Shown piece by piece: positions 3,364 through 62,680 of a stretch of 64,000 bases of DNA. The translations under genes were made by a program, and so were the position numbers. Each line of letters starts with the position of its first letter. Position 1 is the stretch's first letter. This stretch comes from Alphaproteobacteria bacterium (GTDB taxonomy: Bacteria > Pseudomonadota > Alphaproteobacteria > GCA-2731375): the NCBI GenBank assembly GCA_016776605.1, contig JADHTB010000010.1:8727-72726 (forward strand). The letters run 5' to 3'. The notes beneath the pieces were generated by a model. That model was not told the origin of the DNA. It made no database searches and worked only from the letters and a program-made list of their open reading frames with translations.

Positions 3364-3438
3364 AATTGATCTGTTCGTCTTTCAGGCCGCGCCCTAAGTG
3401 CGCTAAGATGCCGGTAACGAGTCAATTTGGAGGCAAAA

Positions 3439-5169
3439 ATGAGCAACGACATTTATACGGCCCTGTGGCCGCGCGGCGAAAAAACCGTGGCGATCGCGCC
3501 CCTGGCGCCGCGCCTGGATACCCTGGAAGGCAAGACCGTGGCCTTCATGTGGGACTACCTGTTCCGGGGTGACGAGATATTCCCGGTTCTGGAAGCCGAG
3601 CTGTCCGCCGCCTATCCGGACATGAAATTCGTTGGCTACACCACCTTTGGCTCCACCCACGGTTCGGAAGAGGGACGAATTCTGGCCGATCTGCCCACCA
3701 CCCTGGCCGATAACAAGGTTGATGCCATAATCTCCGGCATGGGCTGTTGAGGCAGCTGTACCCCCGCCGTGTTGCGGGCATCAGCTGCCGCGGAAGCCGC
3801 CGGCATCCCTTCCTCCTCTCTGGTCTGCGATGGCTTTTTGGGCCAGGGCGCAACCACGGCGGTGGGTTTGGGCCTGCCGAACCTGCCCATGGCCAAGGTG
3901 CCGGGCCATGTGGATACGCAAACCGATAACGAACTGCGCGAGAATCTGATTTCGGTCACCGTAAAGGCGGTGATCGAAAACCTGACCGCCGCCCCCGCGG
4001 CGGCGGTGATGATCCCGGAACCGGGACCACAGGACGTGGTGATGGAGGGCAGTTTTGAAGAGATCAACCGCTTCTTCTATGAAAACGGCTGGTCCGACGG
4101 CTTGCCCATCGTGCCGCCGACGCGGGCCAAGATCGAAAGCTTCCTGGCCTTCACCGATCTGCCCAACGATCATGTAATCGGTAAAATGCCGCCCGACAAC
4201 CGCCAGGCCACGGTCTGGAATGTCGCCGTCAACGGCGTCATGGCGGGCTGCCGGCCACAATACATGCCGGTTCTGGTGGCCTTGGCCGAGGCCATGGCCG
4301 ATCCCGGCTATGGCGTCGAGCATTCCGGCAACACGCCGGGCGCGGAAACCCTGATCACCATCAATGGCCCCATCATCAAGGACCTGGAATTCAATTATGA
4401 ACAGGGCGCCCTGCGCGATGGCTTTCAGGCCAACACCTCCATCGGCCGCTGGTGGCGGTTGTATCTGCGCAATGTGGCGGGCTTTCTGCTGCATCAGAAC
4501 GACAAGGGTACCTTCGGCAACACCTGGCGCGTGGTTCTGGCGGAGAACGAGGATGTGCTCGCGAAAATCGGCTGGCCGCCCCATTCGGCTGATTTTGGTC
4601 ATGCCCGGGGCGACAACGCCGTCACCATCTCGCGCTTCACGGGGGGCGATGTCATCGCCTCGGTCTATGGGCAGAAACCAGAGGATATGCTGCCATATCT
4701 GGCCGATGCCCTGATCAGCCAGACCGGCTGGCAGTTGATCTTTACGGTCGGCATGGCCGATGGCAGCTATACCCCGTTGCTGGTGCTATCACCCATCCTG
4801 GCCGAAACCATGGCCAAGGCCGGCTGGTCCAAGGACGATGTGCGGCAATGGCTGTTTGAAAACGCCCGCATCCCGGCCTCGAAGTTCGAACAATATATTG
4901 TCGAGTTCACCAACTTCTATTCCGGCGGACGCTCCATGTTCGAACTGGCCCAGTTGGGCAAGGCGAACGAGCTGTATGGCCTGTCCAAGGATCCGGACCG
5001 CCTGGTGCCCATCGTCTGCGACCCCATGGACATTCAGATTGCGGTCAGTGGCGATCCGGGGCGGACCAACGCCCAGGTGTTCTCGCACAATGGTATTCTG
5101 GGCTTTCCCACGGCGCGGGCGATCCGCCTGCCCAATGACTGGAAGAACAAGTTGGCCAATGCCGGATGA
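3439..5169 (+). CDS. Putative selenoprotein: an N-terminal UGSC-type domain (about 107 aa) with an in-frame TGA (selenocysteine) at 3748-3750 inside the motif GMG-C-U-G-S-C, fused in frame to a domain of about 470 aa of unknown function
   Basis: The track ORFs 3427..3750 and 3769..5169 are in the same frame (both coordinates are 1 mod 3) and are separated only by one TGA. The codons after the TGA read GGC AGC TGT (G-S-C), giving CUGSC. A SECIS-like hairpin follows directly. The ATG at 3439 is preceded by a GGAGG Shine-Dalgarno sequence 7 nt upstream. Confidence 0.6.
3751..3789 (+). other. SECIS-like RNA hairpin immediately 3' of the in-frame UGA
   Basis: GGCAGCTG (3751-3758) pairs with CAGCTGCC (3782-3789). 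An inner stem CCCGC/GCGGG closes a 6-nt apical loop CGUGUU. Total length is about 39 nt starting at +1 after the UGA, matching the layout of bacterial SECIS elements. Confidence 0.5.
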
Positions 5170-6402
5170 GTGGTGCCGGATGAGTGGGGCAGAGTGAACG
5201 ACGGACAATCTCTGTGGATCCTGCTGCCCACCGGACAGCGGGCATCGGGCGAATGGATTGACGACACCCTGCACAGCCGGGCTGACGAGCAAGGCTTGTT
5301 GGGCCGGCTGACCCAGGTCGCCGCCTTTCCGCGGCAACGGGTTGAAGTGGTGCGTGGGCCAAATGCCGAGGCCCGGGTGAACGAAACGTTCTACCGCCGG
5401 GGCTGGACCGACGGCCTGCCCATCGTCGTCCCCAGCATGGCCCGCGTGGACGCCATGCTGCGGGCCGGCGGGCGGCCGCGCAACATGGTCATGGGCGAGG
5501 CCGAGCCGTTGAAGGGCGTGGTAACGGTTGAAAAGGTCGCCATCAACGCGGTCATGGCCGGCTGCGAGGACGCGCATATGCCCTTCGTCCTGGCCGCCGC
5601 CGAGGCCTTGTTGGAGCCAGCATTCAATCTGCGCGGCGTCCAGACCACGGACGAAAACGTCACGCCGTTGCTGATGCTGTCGGGGCCGGCGGCAAAAACC
5701 ATGCACATGAACAGCCGGTTTGGCGCCCTGGGGCCCGGCTGGCGGGCCAATGCCGCCATTGGCCGGGCGGTGCGGCTGATCATGCACAACCTGGGTGGTG
5801 GCTGGCCGGCGGCGGTGGCCTTTGCCGGCCTGGGCCAGCCGGGCCGCTATACCCTGTGCCTGGCCGAGGATGAGGAGTTCAATCCCTGGGAAAGCCTGCG
5901 CGAGGAGCTGGGCTTTGCCGTGGAAGACAACGTATTGGTGGTGCAACGGGCCGAAAGCGTGGTCAACGTAACCGGCGGCCTGAACGATCTGGCCTCTGTC
6001 ATGGCCTCGGCCACGTCCGCTTTTTCCCGTCTGCATGGGGGCACGGTCGCCGTCGTCCTGGCGCCCTATGTGGCGAAATTACTGGCGGAGGAAGGTAAAT
6101 CGAAGGCCGACGTGAAGGCCTATTTGCACGAACACAGCCGGGCCCCGGCGGCGGAGTTCGAAAAATCCTGGCTGCCGGCCCGTCTGGCCGGCAAGACGAA
6201 ATTCCCCCGCTGGGTGAAAGAGGGCGTCCAGGCGGGCTGGGTACCGGCGGTGGAAAAGCCCGACGACATCACCGTCATCGTCGCGGGCGGCGATATTCCG
6301 ATTCCCCAATGCGCCTATATGCCAACCTGGGGTTTCCCCGCCTGCCGCATCGCCAAGAAAATTGATTTACCTCAGGGGTGGGACCCCTCGCCGGAGATTT
6401 AA
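5170..6402 (+). CDS. Paralogue of the C-terminal domain of the upstream selenoprotein (uncharacterised family); it lacks the UGSC domain
   Basis: Shared motifs with the upstream gene: FYxxGW(S/T)DGLPIV(P/V)P, N(G/A)VMAGC, and a collinear remainder. The start abuts the upstream stop (5169/5170), suggesting translational coupling. The start codon is uncertain (GTG). Confidence 0.6.
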   Translation: MVPDEWGRVNDGQSLWILLPTGQRASGEWIDDTLHSRADEQGLLGRLTQVAAFPRQRVEVVRGPNAEARVNETFYRRGWTDGLPIVVPSMARVDAMLRAGGRPRNMVMGEAEPLKGVVTVEKVAINAVMAGCEDAHMPFVLAAAEALLEPAFNLRGVQTTDENVTPLLMLSGPAAKTMHMNSRFGALGPGWRANAAIGRAVRLIMHNLGGGWPAAVAFAGLGQPGRYTLCLAEDEEFNPWESLREELGFAVEDNVLVVQRAESVVNVTGGLNDLASVMASATSAFSRLHGGTVAVVLAPYVAKLLAEEGKSKADVKAYLHEHSRAPAAEFEKSWLPARLAGKTKFPRWVKEGVQAGWVPAVEKPDDITVIVAGGDIPIPQCAYMPTWGFPACRIAKKIDLPQGWDPSPEI

Positions 6403-7317
6403 ATGCCCAGAGCACCCCGTACAAGCCATCAGTTGATCGTTATTGGCGCCGGCGTCGCCGGCATGGCGGCGGCGACCGAGGCCGCCCGTTGCGGCCTGAA
6501 AACCGCACTGTTCGATGACGGTCTGCTGGGCGGATTAATCACCAATGTGGGCGCCGTGCACGGCCATCCGGGGCTGGCTGAAACAACCGGCGCTGATCTG
6601 GTCAACACCATGCTGGGGGAGGCCCTGGAGGCGGAGGTGGACTACCAGCCTGGCGCCGTCACGGAACTGGCGGCCATGAGTGATCATTGGCGCCTGCCGG
6701 GCAATGACGTTACAGCACTTCGGGTCATACTTGCCACCGGCGCGGACCTGCGCACCCTGGACGTACCGGGCGAGGCAAGATTGATGGGTCGGGGCGTCTC
6801 GCAATGCGCCTTTTGTGATGGCGGATTGTACAAGGGCAAGGATGTCGCCGTGGTGGGGGGTGGCGACGGCGCCTTTCAGGAAGCCCTGCATCTGGCTCAA
6901 CTATGCGCCAACGTCACCATGATCCTGCGCGGCCGCAAACCCCGCGCTCGGCCAACCTTTGCCAGACAGGCCGCCGACCTGGGCAACATGCATTTCCGCT
7001 GGCAGACGGACGTGCGGGAAATTATAGGCGATGGCGGGGTCGATGCCGTTCGCCTGCATGATCAGGACGGCGGCGAAGAAGAAATTTTACCCATCGCCGC
7101 CATTTTCCCCTTCATCGGCCTGGCACCCCGCACCGCGCTGGCGCCGGCGGCTGCCAAACGGGACGACGATGGCGGCTTGATCGTCGATGCCGATATGCAG
7201 ACGGACCAGCCCGGTCTGTACGCCATAGGCGCGGCCCGCGCTGGTCACGGCGGCCAGGTGGCCCACGCCATCGCCGATGCCAAATCAGCGGCCCAGGGGG
7301 CCTGGCGCTCTATTTAA
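6403..7317 (+). CDS. Thioredoxin-reductase-like FAD/NAD(P)H-dependent disulfide oxidoreductase
   Basis: N-terminal GxGxxG motif (VIGAGVAGMAAA). CAFCDG redox-active motif positioned as the TrxB CATCDG motif. A second dinucleotide-binding motif VAVVGGGDGAFQEA. ATG at 6403 directly follows the upstream TAA. Confidence 0.75.
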   Translation: MPRAPRTSHQLIVIGAGVAGMAAATEAARCGLKTALFDDGLLGGLITNVGAVHGHPGLAETTGADLVNTMLGEALEAEVDYQPGAVTELAAMSDHWRLPGNDVTALRVILATGADLRTLDVPGEARLMGRGVSQCAFCDGGLYKGKDVAVVGGGDGAFQEALHLAQLCANVTMILRGRKPRARPTFARQAADLGNMHFRWQTDVREIIGDGGVDAVRLHDQDGGEEEILPIAAIFPFIGLAPRTALAPAAAKRDDDGGLIVDADMQTDQPGLYAIGAARAGHGGQVAHAIADAKSAAQGAWRSI

Positions 7318-29550: not shown

Positions 29551-30426
29551 TTAATTGGCCGAAACAATGAAACAGCGTTCGACCCCACCTAAATCACGAT
29601 GGCGACTTTCAACGTGCAAACCGCTGGCTTCGATAATTTGCCCCAGCAAAAATGCCTGGCCGCGGCCGCACTCCAAGGCCGCTTTGCCGGTCGGTTGCAG
29701 CAACCGCGGCAGATCAGGCAGCAAAGCGCGGTAGGCTGCCAGGCCGTCCCTGCCGCCATCCAGGGCCAGGCCCGGGTCATGGCAGCGGACCTCCGGCGCC
29801 AGGCCGGCAATCTCGGCGGACGCAATATAGGGTGGGTTGGCAACGATCAAATCAAAAGCACCCACCAATGCCCGGCTCCAATCACCCACCATGAAACGAG
29901 CCCGGTCAGAGAGGCCGAGGGCATGCGCATTGTCCCGCGCCTGGCACGCCGCAGCGGCGCTGATATCCAGGCCAACGCCCCAGGATTGGGGCCGTTCCTG
30001 CAATAGCGCCAACAACAGACAACCCGAGCCGGTGCCAAGATCGGCAATTCGATAGGCCCCGTCTTTTTGCCCCAGCTGTTCCAGAGCGGCGGCAACGATG
30101 GTTTCACTGTCCGGGCGCGGATCCAAAACATCCGGCCCTATTTGCAGATCAAGGCTCCAGAATTCTCGGTGCCCCAACAGGCGCGATACCGGTTGCCGCG
30201 CGGCACGGGCCGCGATTAAACCGGCAAAGGCCAGAGCTTCGCCATCGCATAGCCTACGGTCGCCCTGCCGTATCAGGGTCAGGCGGTCGCCGCCAACCAC
30301 ATGGGCCAGCAACAGCCCGGCGTCCAGCATGGCATCGTCGACCCCCGCCGCCCGCAATTCTTGACCGGCGGCGAGCAGAACCTGACGCAAAGTTAACCCT
30401 GGAGCCGGGCCGGCGGCATTAGCCAT
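29551..30426 (-). CDS. prmC: Peptide chain release factor N5-glutamine methyltransferase
   Basis: NPPY motif (LIVANPPYI) and GTGSG SAM-binding motif. Overlaps prfA by 8 nt. Confidence 0.9.
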
Positions 30427-31498
30427 GACCTTCCAGCTCTGCCAATAAATTCGCCTGATGTTCGGCGATCAGAGCATTCACCACCTCGTCCACCGCTTCC
30501 CCACTCATCATTTTTTCCAACTTATACAGGGTCAGATTAATGCGGTGGTCGGTGACCCGGCCCTGGGGAAAATTATAGGTGCGAATGCGCTCGGAACGGT
30601 CGCCACTGCCGACCTGTTCCTTGCGGGCGGAGGCCCGAGCGCCGTCCACCATTTGCCGTTCGACGTCGTACAGGCGGGCGCGCAGCACCTTCATGGCCTT
30701 GGCGCGGTTCTTATGTTGGGATTTGCTATCCTGTTGCGTCACCACGATGCCCGAGGGCAGATGGGTGATGCGGATCGCCGAGTCTGTTTTATTGACGTGC
30801 TGGCCCCCGGCTCCCTGGGCGCGGTAGGTATCGACCCGCAGGTCCGAGGGGTTGATTTCAATATCTATCTCTTCGGCCTCGGGCAAGACGGCGACGGTGG
30901 CGGCGGAGGTATGGATGCGGCCCTGCGATTCCGTTTCGGGCACCCGTTGCACCCGGTGAACACCGGATTCATACTTTAATTTGGCGAACACGCCTTGGCC
31001 CGTGATCTCCGCCACGGCATCCCGGATACCGCCAAGCTCGGATGCACTGAGGCTCATCATTTCGAACTTCCAGCCATTGATCTCGGCATAGCGTTGATAC
31101 ATGCGCAGCAGGTCGGCGGCGAACAGGGCAGCTTCATCGCCGCCTGTACCCGCGCGCACTTCCAAAATGGCATTCTTGGTATCGGCGGCGTCCCTGGGCA
31201 GCATGGCGATCTGCAGTTCATCTTCAAACGCCGGCAATCTCTGCCGTGCCGCCGCCAATTCCTCGGTTGCCAGCGCGCGCATTTCAGCGTCGCTACCCTG
31301 ATCAACAACCATTGCCCCCAGTTCGGCAATTTCGGCACGCATATCGCGTATCACGGCGGCCTTCTTGGCCACCGGGGCAAGCTCGGCATATTCCTTGGAC
31401 AGGCGGACAAAATCGCCGCTCGAACCACCCGCCGCCATTGTGGCCTCAAGCTCCGCCAGGCGTTTCAGGATGCCCTCTATCTGTTCTTCGCTGATCAT
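30419..31498 (-). CDS. prfA: Peptide chain release factor 1
   Basis: GGQ motif ([22 protein letters not shown]) and PxT-type region; 359 aa. Confidence 0.95.
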
Positions 31499-32742
31499 GT
31501 AACCAATTTCCGCAGATGGGCCGCTACCGCGTCCAGGGCGACATCCTGCTGGGCGCCGTCATCCAAATCGCGCAGGGTTATCATACCTTTGGCGATTTCA
31601 TCATCGCCCAGGATTAATGCCGCGCGGGCGTTCAGCTTGTTGGCCCGTTTCAGCCGCCGGCTTAAATTACCGCGAAATCCCATATCGACCGTAAAGCCGT
31701 CCCGACGCAGGCCATGGCACAGCCGCAGAGCCATGCTCTCGGCCTCGGCCCCCAGGGGCACCAGGGCAATGGGCCGGACTGGCGCAGGCGTATGGGCGGC
31801 CAGCATGGCCAGGCGTTCGATACCCCCGGCCCAGCCGATACCAGGCGTCTCTGGTCCGCCCAGCATCTTGATCAGGCCGTCATATCGGCCACCTGCAATG
31901 ACCGCGCCCTGGGCGCCCAGGGCGTCGGTGACGAATTCAAAGGCGGTGTGGGTATAATAATCCAAACCGCGCACCAGGCGCTGATTGACGTTGTAGGTGA
32001 TCCCCAGGGCATCCAATCCTTCGCGGACGGCGGCAAAAAATTCCTGCGATGCCGGGTTTAAATATTCAGCCATCAAAGGGGCATCAACAACGATCACCCG
32101 GTCCCCTTCGTCCTTGGAATCCAGGATGCGCAAGGGATTGCGGGCCAACCGATCGACGCTGTCTTCCGAGAGGCGGTCCCGATGGTCGGAAAAATAAGTT
32201 ACCAGGGCCTCGCGATAAGCCTGCCGGCTGTCGGGATCGCCCAGGGTGTTCAGTTCCAGGGTACAGCGGTCCAGGACACCCAGCTCGTGCAGAATGTCGG
32301 TGCCCAGGGCGATAATCTCGATATCGGCACCGGGGCCTTCCACGCCCAGGATTTCGGCATTAATCTGGTGGAACTGCCGCAACCGGCCTTTTTGCGGCCG
32401 CTCATAGCGAAAGGCCGGGCCATGCGCGAAAAACTTCAACGGCAAATCCTGCTGCATCCCGCCTGAGATGAAAGCGCGGCAGATGCCGGCGGTGAATTCC
32501 GGGCGCAGGGTAATATCCTCGCCACCACGATCGGTGAACGAATACATCTCCTTGCGCACGACGTCGGAGCCCTCGCCCATGGTGCGGGCAAAGACCGGCG
32601 TGAATTCAAAAATCGGCGTATCGATATCGCTAAAGGCATAGCGGTGGGCACAGTTCCGCGCCACCTCCACCACGTGGCGATGACCCGCCGCCGCCACGCC
32701 GACAATGTCATGGGTGCCGCGCACCGATTGAATTTTCGCCAT
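31495..32742 (-). CDS. hisS: Histidine--tRNA ligase
   Basis: Class II aaRS motifs and HisRS-specific regions. Start chosen at [13 protein letters not shown]; the track ORF carries an N-terminal extension unlikely to be translated. Confidence 0.9.
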
Positions 32743-32761
32743 ACTCGTCTTACTCCGCGTC

Positions 32762-33889
32762 TTACTCTGTCGGGACCAGGGCCATTCGTTCCTGGCCAGC
32801 CTGCATTTCCGCCACCTTGGCCTCGACCAACGCGACCACATGATCAACAAAGCCTTCATCGCCGATCTTGTGATCGGCAACGCCGCTTAGATACACTAAA
32901 TGGGTGCCGTGGCCACCGCCGGTAACACCGATATCGGTTTCCCGTGCCTCGCCCGGGCCATTTACCACGCAGCCCATGATGGACAGGGTCAGCGGTGTGA
33001 CGATATGGGCCAGGCGTTGTTCCAAGGCTTCCACCGTCTTGATCACGGGAAAGGCCTGGCGCGCGCAGGACGGGCAGCTAACGATGGAGACCCCACGATG
33101 GCGCAGGCCCAGGGCCTTCAATATCTCGAAACCAGCATGGATTTCCTCGACCGGGTCGGCGGACAGGGAAACCCGGATGGTGTCGCCAATACCGGCCCAC
33201 AAAAGATTGCCAAGGCCGATGGACGACTTGACCGTGCCGCCCCGCAAGGCGCCGGCCTCGGTAATGCCCAGGTGCAGGGGATAGTCACAGGCATCCGCCA
33301 GGGCCTGATAGGCGGCAACGCAAAGAAACACATCCGATGCCTTGACCGAAATCTTAAAGTCTTCAAAGTTATTGTCTTCCAGCAACCGGGCATGGTTCAA
33401 GGCGCTTTCCACCATCGCCTCCGGGCAGGGTTCGCCATAACGTTCCAGCAATTCGCGTTCCAGGCTGCCGGCATTGACGCCAATGCGCATGGAACAGCCG
33501 TTGGCCCGGGCGGCCTGTATCACCTCACGCACCCGGCTTTCAGAGCCGATATTGCCCGGATTGATACGTAAACAGGCAGCGCCGTTGTCGGCTGCTTCCA
33601 AGGCCCGGCGATAATGGAAATGAATGTCGGCGATAATCGGCACGCTGACCTGATCGACAATGTCGCGCAGGGCGGCCGAAGACGCTTCATCGGGGCAGGA
33701 AACCCGGACGATATCCGCGCCGGCCGCCTCCAATGCCTTGATCTGGGCCACCGTCGCGGCGACATCATGGGTCAGCGTCGTGGTCATGGATTGCACCGAG
33801 ATCGGCGCGCTGCCGCCGACGGCAACGTCACCAACCTTCACCTGACGGCAAGTCCGCCGCTGAATATCGCGATAGGGACGTAGGCTCAT
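32762..33889 (-). CDS. ispG: 4-hydroxy-3-methylbut-2-enyl diphosphate synthase (flavodoxin type)
   Basis: GcpE-family TIM-barrel and 4Fe-4S domain (CPSCAR...C). Start chosen at MSLRPYRDI. Confidence 0.9.
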
Positions 33890-34004
33890 GATCTGATCCA
33901 GGATACGGGGTGTAAACACGGGACACATAAAATCAGGCCGGAAAAAACACCGCAGACCAGCCTGACCGATGCAATAGCAATAAATTGCTACCGATAACAG
34001 GTAA

Positions 34005-61935: not shown

Positions 61936-62242
61936 TTTATGGGATATCATGCCTTAATATGCCCGTCAATTATTAAACAAATAATTAATTGGCGTTCTCA
62001 AAGTTAAAATTAGAGCAATGAAGTGTTTCGCCAAATGCCGCGAGCGATCAAATCCGGCTTGATCTATAAAATTACCAGACGATTCAGAGCAACAATCAGG
62101 ATGGTCTATAGGAACAATGAGGCGAAACCTTGTTCCTTTTATGTTCTTATTGTTATTTTTGCTCCGCACGGCGTGGTGCCAAAGCTCTTTCGAGATTGGC
62201 TGAACCACCCGCGCTCCGCATCGGCACATTATGAAGAAGGGG

Positions 62243-62680
<438 letters not shown>

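Follow-up and report, generated by a model that had tools for sequence, protein, structure and literature searches.

Bacterial selenocysteine insertion sequence (bSECIS) elements are described by the bSECISearch model (Zhang and Gladyshev 2005, as given in Fig. 2A of PMC13188914) as hairpins whose upper stem of 4-16 bp carries a loop of 3-9 nt. The model places a G in position 1 or 2 of the loop, usually followed by G or U, and allows a spacing of 16-37 nt from the UGA to the loop, at a minimum free energy (MFE) of -7.5 kcal/mol or below (PMC13188914). The SECIS of E. coli fdhF comprises 40 nt. Its upper stem-loop is formed by nt 15-31 and lies 11 nt past the UGA; its loop contains G23 and U24, U17 bulges out, and nt 4-14 pair with nt 32-41 to form the lower helix (PMC8659212). 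Here we analyse a complete SECIS-like hairpin of 39 nt (positions 3751-3789, + strand) in a stretch of 64,000 nt from an alphaproteobacterial assembly (GCA_016776605.1, contig JADHTB010000010.1), called the window in the following. Judged from its sequence and from that of its relatives, this hairpin, which starts directly after an in-frame UGA, is very probably a bSECIS within the coding sequence of a UGSC-family selenoprotein gene.

Since 2007 the UGSC-containing protein has counted among the listed selenoprotein families (PMC1976440). In the Global Ocean Sampling (GOS) selenoproteome it ranked fifth among the families in number of selenoprotein sequences, with 255 selenocysteine (Sec) forms against 21 cysteine (Cys) forms, and a "UGSC/Unknown_1" domain fusion was reported in the same study (PMC2398784). 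The kind of element, the host family and the fusion of UGSC with an unknown domain were thus already described in 2007-2008. Mildly beyond this literature go the conservation of the apical hairpin at the nucleotide level across phyla, including one loop base (C21, see below), and a lower stem that has been re-registered through a switch between the two codon families of Ser.

The gene and the hairpin behind its in-frame UGA

The gene carrying the hairpin lies at 3439-5169 on the + strand and comprises 576 codons. Its reading frame extends from the ATG at 3439, which follows a Shine-Dalgarno-like GGAGG (3429-3433, + strand, read from the sequence) at a distance of 5 nt, to the stop codon at 5167-5169. 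It is interrupted only once, by the TGA at 3748-3750 (codon 104). The peptide surrounding this TGA is GMGC-U-GSCTPAVLRASAAAEAAG. The U/C-G-S-C motif is present as C-U-G-S-C-T-P (within GMGC-U-GSCTP), and U-G-S-C is common to the window protein and the UGSC family (PF24696; NF041046; Hyphomonas neptunium ABI76733.1).

The encoded protein is a fusion of a UGSC domain with a C-terminal domain. Its N-terminal UGSC domain (residues ~9-183) matched Pfam PF24696 ("UGSC family") with 98.6 bits at a gathering score of 25. The equivalog cutoff of NCBIfam NF041046 ("UGSC family (seleno)protein") was not reached (46.4 bits vs 125); hence the protein represents a divergent fused subfamily and not the short stand-alone equivalog. 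For the C-terminal part (~390 residues) no match was found in Pfam, NCBIfam or PDB sequences. The window protein combines UGSC with a conserved C-terminal domain, as does the UGSC/Unknown_1 fusion from GOS, whose Unknown_1 may be the same domain.

Directly after the TGA the sequence reads GGCAGCTG (3751-3758), TACC, CCCGC (3763-3767), CGTGTT (3768-3773), GCGGG (3774-3778), CAT and CAGCTGCC (3782-3789). RNAfold forms from it a lower stem of 8 bp, in which the 5' arm GGCAGCUG (3751-3758, + strand) pairs with the 3' arm CAGCUGCC (3782-3789, + strand). An asymmetric internal loop (4 + 3 nt) separates this stem from the upper stem of 5 bp, which is closed by the 6-nt loop CGUGUU. The apical stem-loop CCCGC-CGUGUU-GCGGG (3763-3778, + strand) is the conserved core and presumably the SelB-binding part. 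The MFE of positions 3751-3789 is -24.2 kcal/mol, with this structure accounting for 75% of the ensemble, and the hairpin is retained when folded in contexts of 48 nt and 151 nt. The first-pass annotation of this DNA had drawn an 8-bp outer stem, a 5-bp inner stem and the loop CGUGUU over about 39 nt, which is exactly the structure that RNAfold gives. Neither a terminator nor a promoter was found at the hairpin, and it is not followed by a T-run. Further copies of the apical motif in the window did not exceed chance, and viral contigs gave no match to it.

Dinucleotide shuffles of 3751-3789 folded with -13.6 +/- 2.5 kcal/mol, placing the native sequence at a z-score of -4.2; one of 200 shuffles was as stable. 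Since GC-rich coding sequence folds easily (G+C of the hairpin region is 72%), a stricter control was used in which the peptide was kept fixed and synonymous codons were resampled from the gene's own usage. Over 48 nt the native sequence reached -26.0 kcal/mol compared to -17.7 +/- 3.2 kcal/mol for the randomised ones (z -2.6), and 1/100 was as stable. The comparison with shuffled sequences, proposed as a check in the first-pass annotation, thus comes out in favour of the hairpin in both controls.

The bacterial SECIS geometry claimed at first sight is borne out by the published model, with which the hairpin agrees in all four respects. Its loop has 6 nt, its upper stem 5-6 bp, G-U occupies loop positions 2-3 and the MFE is far below the threshold. 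The distance from the UGA to the apical loop is 17 nt (3751-3767) and lies within the allowed range. The element is also located in coding sequence, immediately 3' of an in-frame UGA. The optional N1-N2 pair in the loop of the model cannot form, as C21 (numbered, like all hairpin positions below, from the U of the UGA) stands opposite U, C, A or G at position 25.

Compared to fdhF, the window hairpin is nearly superimposable, both being ~40 nt long. The upper stem-loop extends over nt 16-31 in the window and over nt 15-31 in fdhF. It is found 12 nt past the UGA in the window and 11 nt past it in those orthologues that form an additional pair 15-32. The loop G-U dinucleotide is offset by one nucleotide (nt 22-23 vs 23-24). 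The lower helix is formed by 4-11/35-42 in the window, by 4-14/35-45 in most orthologues and by 4-14/32-41 in fdhF. In contrast to this agreement in geometry, the primary sequences of the two elements are unrelated.

Conservation of the hairpin in Sec and Cys forms

A database search returned more than 3,900 relatives of the selenoprotein. Most commonly these are listed as proteins of 466-468 aa beginning with MLRASA, a start that corresponds to the GTG at 3769 in the window, inside the hairpin. These models are truncated just past the unrecognised Sec codon and lack Sec together with 103 N-terminal residues, although some of the fragments still carry the NCBI name "UGSC family (seleno)protein". 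Twelve full-length relatives (~580 aa, 52-59% identity) have Cys at the position of the TGA, in the motif A/C-C-G-S/A-C-T/A-P, and thereby form a Sec/Cys pair with the window protein.

Orthologous DNA was collected in two scans. A genome scan with one genome per species gave 80 loci with protein identities of 60-93%. They span at least 8 phyla and comprise Alpha-, Beta- and Gammaproteobacteria, Myxococcota, Acidimicrobiia, Chloroflexota, Methylomirabilota, Dormiibacterota and Nitrospinota. A metagenome scan, meant to gather Cys forms, yielded 80 further loci, all of them Sec forms. As in the GOS data, Cys forms are far rarer than Sec forms. The 160 loci represent 158 distinct sequences. In tblastn the matches at orthologous loci were in frame over query residues 1-575, and a TGA was present at the aligned codon, within C/A-U-GSC-T/A-P, in 80/80 genome and 80/80 metagenome loci. 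One member of the set (L049, CAMDRJ010000017.1; 63% identity) is labelled as a Klebsiella pneumoniae metagenome-assembled genome but is found amid Burkholderiales-like relatives; the label is probably a binning or labelling error.

The motif CCYGCCGTGNTGCGGG (CCYGCC-GTGNTG-CGGG, positions 16-31) occurs in all 158 distinct Sec-form genes, 151 of which include the apical stem in their MFE structure. Orthologues that keep the TGA without a conserved hairpin, the case named beforehand as speaking against a SECIS, were not found among the 160 loci. Over at least 8 phyla, the 16 nt of the apical hairpin differ only at a single base of the loop and by one C-to-U wobble.

This conservation was compared with that of the remaining gene in a codon alignment of the 158 Sec-form genes, using the entropy at the 188 columns in which an amino acid with degenerate codons is conserved to at least 90%. 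Codon entropy averages 1.18 bit and falls below 0.15 bit in only four columns, namely codons +5, +6, +7 and +9 after the UGA. Pro +5 is CCC in 157/158 genes, while Ala +6 (GCC), Val +7 (GTG) and Arg +9 (CGG) are each invariant in 158/158. The Leu codon +8 is either UUG or CUG. Codons +1 to +4, and those from +11 on, show free synonymous variation. By simple combinatorics (5/C(188,4)), the chance that the four lowest of 188 columns fall within one run of 5 codons is ~1e-7.

How much of this is due to RNA structure can be read from the individual positions. C17, G19 and C20 in the 5' arm and C28, G29 and G31 in the 3' arm are set by the peptide. Positions 18, 27 and 30 are third codon positions, and their invariance is accounted for by structure alone because the peptide dictates the bases with which they pair. 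For the same reason the upper-stem pairs show no covariation. In the loop, G22 and U23 are invariant (158/158) but are also dictated by the Val codon. The situation is different for position 21, the third base of Ala GCC, which lies in the loop and is C in 158/158 genes, an invariance explained neither by pairing nor by the peptide. C21 therefore needs sequence-specific recognition or some other constraint. The invariance of G24 weighs less than that of C21, because Val is encoded by GTG in all Cys forms considered below as well.

The Cys forms serve as a control in which the peptide is retained without the UGA. The six Cys-form genes for which DNA was used encode the same peptide, C-G-S/A-C-T-P-A-V-[LIV]-R-A-S, with a varying choice of codons: CCA, CCC, CCT or CCG for Pro, GCC, GCG or GCA for Ala, and CGT, CGG or CGC for Arg. 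The apical hairpin can be formed in none of the six (0/6), as opposed to its presence in 158/158 Sec forms. Over the apical 19 nt the mean MFE is -4.0 kcal/mol in the Cys forms and -11.8 kcal/mol in the Sec forms. In the 48-nt fold the Sec forms reach -24.0 kcal/mol and the Cys forms -17.3 kcal/mol, the latter being close to the -18.2 kcal/mol expected for the Sec forms after synonymous randomisation. As the Cys forms have no hairpin despite the same peptide, the hairpin goes with the TGA rather than with the peptide.

Covariation, also proposed as a check on the hairpin, was found at pair 15-32, which is G-C in 41, A-U in 17, G-U in 4 and unpaired in 7 of 69 cases. Here the synonymous third base of a Thr codon tracks an Ala/Val change on the opposite side. 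With this pair the upper stem reaches 6 bp in most orthologues; the window has 5 bp since it has C-C at this place.

The lower stem is less uniform. About two thirds of the sequences, those with a Ser AGY codon, share a register in which 4-14 pair with 35-45. In this register 83% of the cells are paired, compared to 26-46% for shifted partners. The window and its close relatives, which use Ser TCA, form 4-11 with 35-42, a register paired in 59% of the cells across the whole set. The 8-bp outer stem of the first-pass annotation thus folds as drawn in the window, but it is specific for the window's subclade, and most orthologues are 3 nt out of register with it. When only the flanking codons were randomised and the apical codons kept, the lower stem was more stable than expected in 87% of the genes. 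The mean z was -1.2 (window -2.2), and the direction was consistent throughout. Taken together, the frozen apical sites, the covarying pair and the lower stem rebuilt in another register show that selection acts on the RNA itself.

Probable SECIS function and competing explanations

The interpretation as a bSECIS is based on the combination of a stable hairpin, an in-frame UGA aligned with Cys, and the joint occurrence of UGA and hairpin in every Sec-form relative examined. Several points weigh against it. Rfam, searched at the gathering threshold and in a permissive scan of 3650-3900, returned no SECIS family and nothing above chance level. The bulged U17 of fdhF is absent, as positions 16-20 of the window hairpin are all paired. 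The five upper-stem pairs never vary, so that covariation is uninformative there. The comparison with Cys forms comprises only six DNAs, and because shuffle statistics and counts come from related sequences, their independence is overstated. In addition, selA, selB, selD and tRNA(Sec) were not detected in the window by ARAGORN, which found no tRNA, and a partial scan covering 20 open reading frames (ORFs). However, sel genes need not lie near a selenoprotein gene.

It could be argued that translation really ends at the TGA and that two genes are present, one for a product of 103 aa and one for a product of 466 aa starting at the GTG at 3769. In that case the hairpin would be an intergenic element with a regulatory, coupling or terminator role. 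Public gene callers mostly give this two-gene model (466-468 aa, start MLRASA). Yet the peptide GSCTPAV between the TGA and the GTG is conserved in frame at all loci, full-length Cys homologues read straight through, and the PF24696 match (9-183) is one domain that spans the TGA. A terminator-like site and a T-run are both absent at the hairpin, and we regard this arrangement as extremely improbable. The same holds for the idea that the hairpin has no function at the RNA level and is a by-product of a conserved peptide and GC-rich codon usage, to which we give hardly any credence. The 72% G+C of the region, the strong conservation of the peptide and the five upper-stem pairs without covariation would all be compatible with it. 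This is opposed by the Cys-form genes, which have the same peptide but no hairpin, by the much weaker folds after synonymous randomisation, by the covarying pair 15-32 and by the finding that, among 188 conserved codons, synonymous freezing is confined to the hairpin.

Alternatively, the UGA could be recoded without Sec machinery, either by near-cognate read-through with Trp or Cys or in a reassigned code, with the hairpin acting merely as a stimulator. Stable downstream structures can promote read-through in other systems, and the tRNA scan and the 20 ORFs of the window contained no Sec machinery. Against this, TGA is the ordinary terminator of other Pfam-supported genes of the window and of the selenoprotein gene itself. 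The UGA is moreover aligned specifically with a redox Cys in a catalogued selenoprotein family, and both the position of the element and the content of its loop agree with the SelB-type bSECIS model. Recoding of this kind is therefore very unlikely. That the TGA is a sequencing error or the mark of a pseudogene can practically be dismissed, as 160 independent assemblies share this TGA and the sequence on either side of it is under purifying selection.

If the hairpin is a bSECIS, as we favour, the E. coli pathway suggests how it would work. With a ribosome at the UGA (3748-3750), the apical stem-loop (3763-3778) would sit just beyond the mRNA channel, where SelB-GTP carrying Sec-tRNA(Sec) would bind the loop G-U dinucleotide. 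SelB would thereby bring Sec-tRNA(Sec) to the A site, competing there with release factor 2 (RF-2). Sec would enter the U-G-S-C redox motif and translation would proceed to 5169. Binding of SelB and insertion of Sec at this UGA are inferred by analogy with E. coli.

The conservation of the apical hairpin exceeds what the loose bSECIS model asks for, while synonymous changes have reached saturation in the rest of the gene. This may hint at a sequence-specific requirement beyond the G-U contact. It could reflect a distinct mode of SelB recognition shared across phyla or a second function, for example selenium-dependent regulation. We consider such an additional requirement possible but rather unlikely.

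Genomic context and role of the protein

Downstream of the selenoprotein gene follows a free-standing paralogue of its C-terminal domain (5170-6402, + strand; BLASTP 31% identity, E 8e-35), and a similar paralogue is found downstream in 77/160 Sec loci. The next gene (6403-7317, + strand) encodes a thioredoxin reductase (TrxR)-like flavoprotein with a Pfam Pyr_redox_2 domain, a likely redox partner. A TrxR-like flavoprotein gene adjoins the Cys form in 8/8 contexts and is present in 47 of the 112 Sec loci with enough flanking sequence. The three genes appear to form an operon. The flavoprotein neighbourhood fits a redox role of the U-x-x-C motif but does not prove it. In an AlphaFold2 model of one Cys homologue (P0017; predicted local distance difference test score, pLDDT, 83.9) the motif is located between a beta strand and the N-terminus of a helix. 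It sits in a Rossmann or flavodoxin-like domain, for which fold searches against the PDB gave generic matches only. We infer that the protein is a thiol/selenol oxidoreductase which is recycled by the co-transcribed TrxR-like flavoprotein. A relation to the GrdB/PrdB selenoproteins was not supported by a Pfam scan at E-values up to 10.

The C-terminal domain (~380 aa) is encoded at 4036-5166 and again at 5170-6399. It is marked by the motifs WSDGLPIVPPT and VNGVMAGC and is widespread, with no specific structural neighbour. At the junction between the selenoprotein stop and the paralogue (5158-5185) we noted a tandem duplication of 14 nt (GCCGGATGAGTGG plus one base). It puts the second ORF in the frame of the first and displaces the ATG, which in relatives overlaps the end of the first ORF (ATGA or GTGA). 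A similar repeat is present at one further locus (L008). In another relative (P0020) the truncated gene call runs on into the paralogue as one product of 861 aa. As the next ORF shares its frame, the terminal TGA at 5167-5169 was considered as a second recoding site, but this was rejected on the evidence of the orthologues. In these the downstream paralogue lies in frames 0, 1 and 2 at 12, 32 and 26 loci, respectively, and the stop codon is TGA, TAG or TAA.

Elsewhere in the window, a bacterial RNase P RNA of class A is located at 62241-62671 (- strand; full-length match, 302 bits). A housekeeping block at 29551-33928 (- strand) encodes a prmC-like methyltransferase, release factor 1 (RF-1, PCRF/RF-1), histidyl-tRNA synthetase and GcpE/IspG. 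RF-1 is therefore present, and no RF-2 was seen among the ORFs scanned in the window.

No new biological question is opened by the element. Its value lies in annotation, as the correct product of the gene is a selenoprotein of 576 residues, whereas public gene calls mostly give fragments of 466-468 aa. The near-invariant pattern TGA-GGN-NNN-TGY-RCN-CCY-GCC-GTG-NTG-CGG-G could be used to flag such genes. Moreover, the family provides a worked example of how an RNA structure limits synonymous sites within a coding region, with the Cys forms as a built-in control.

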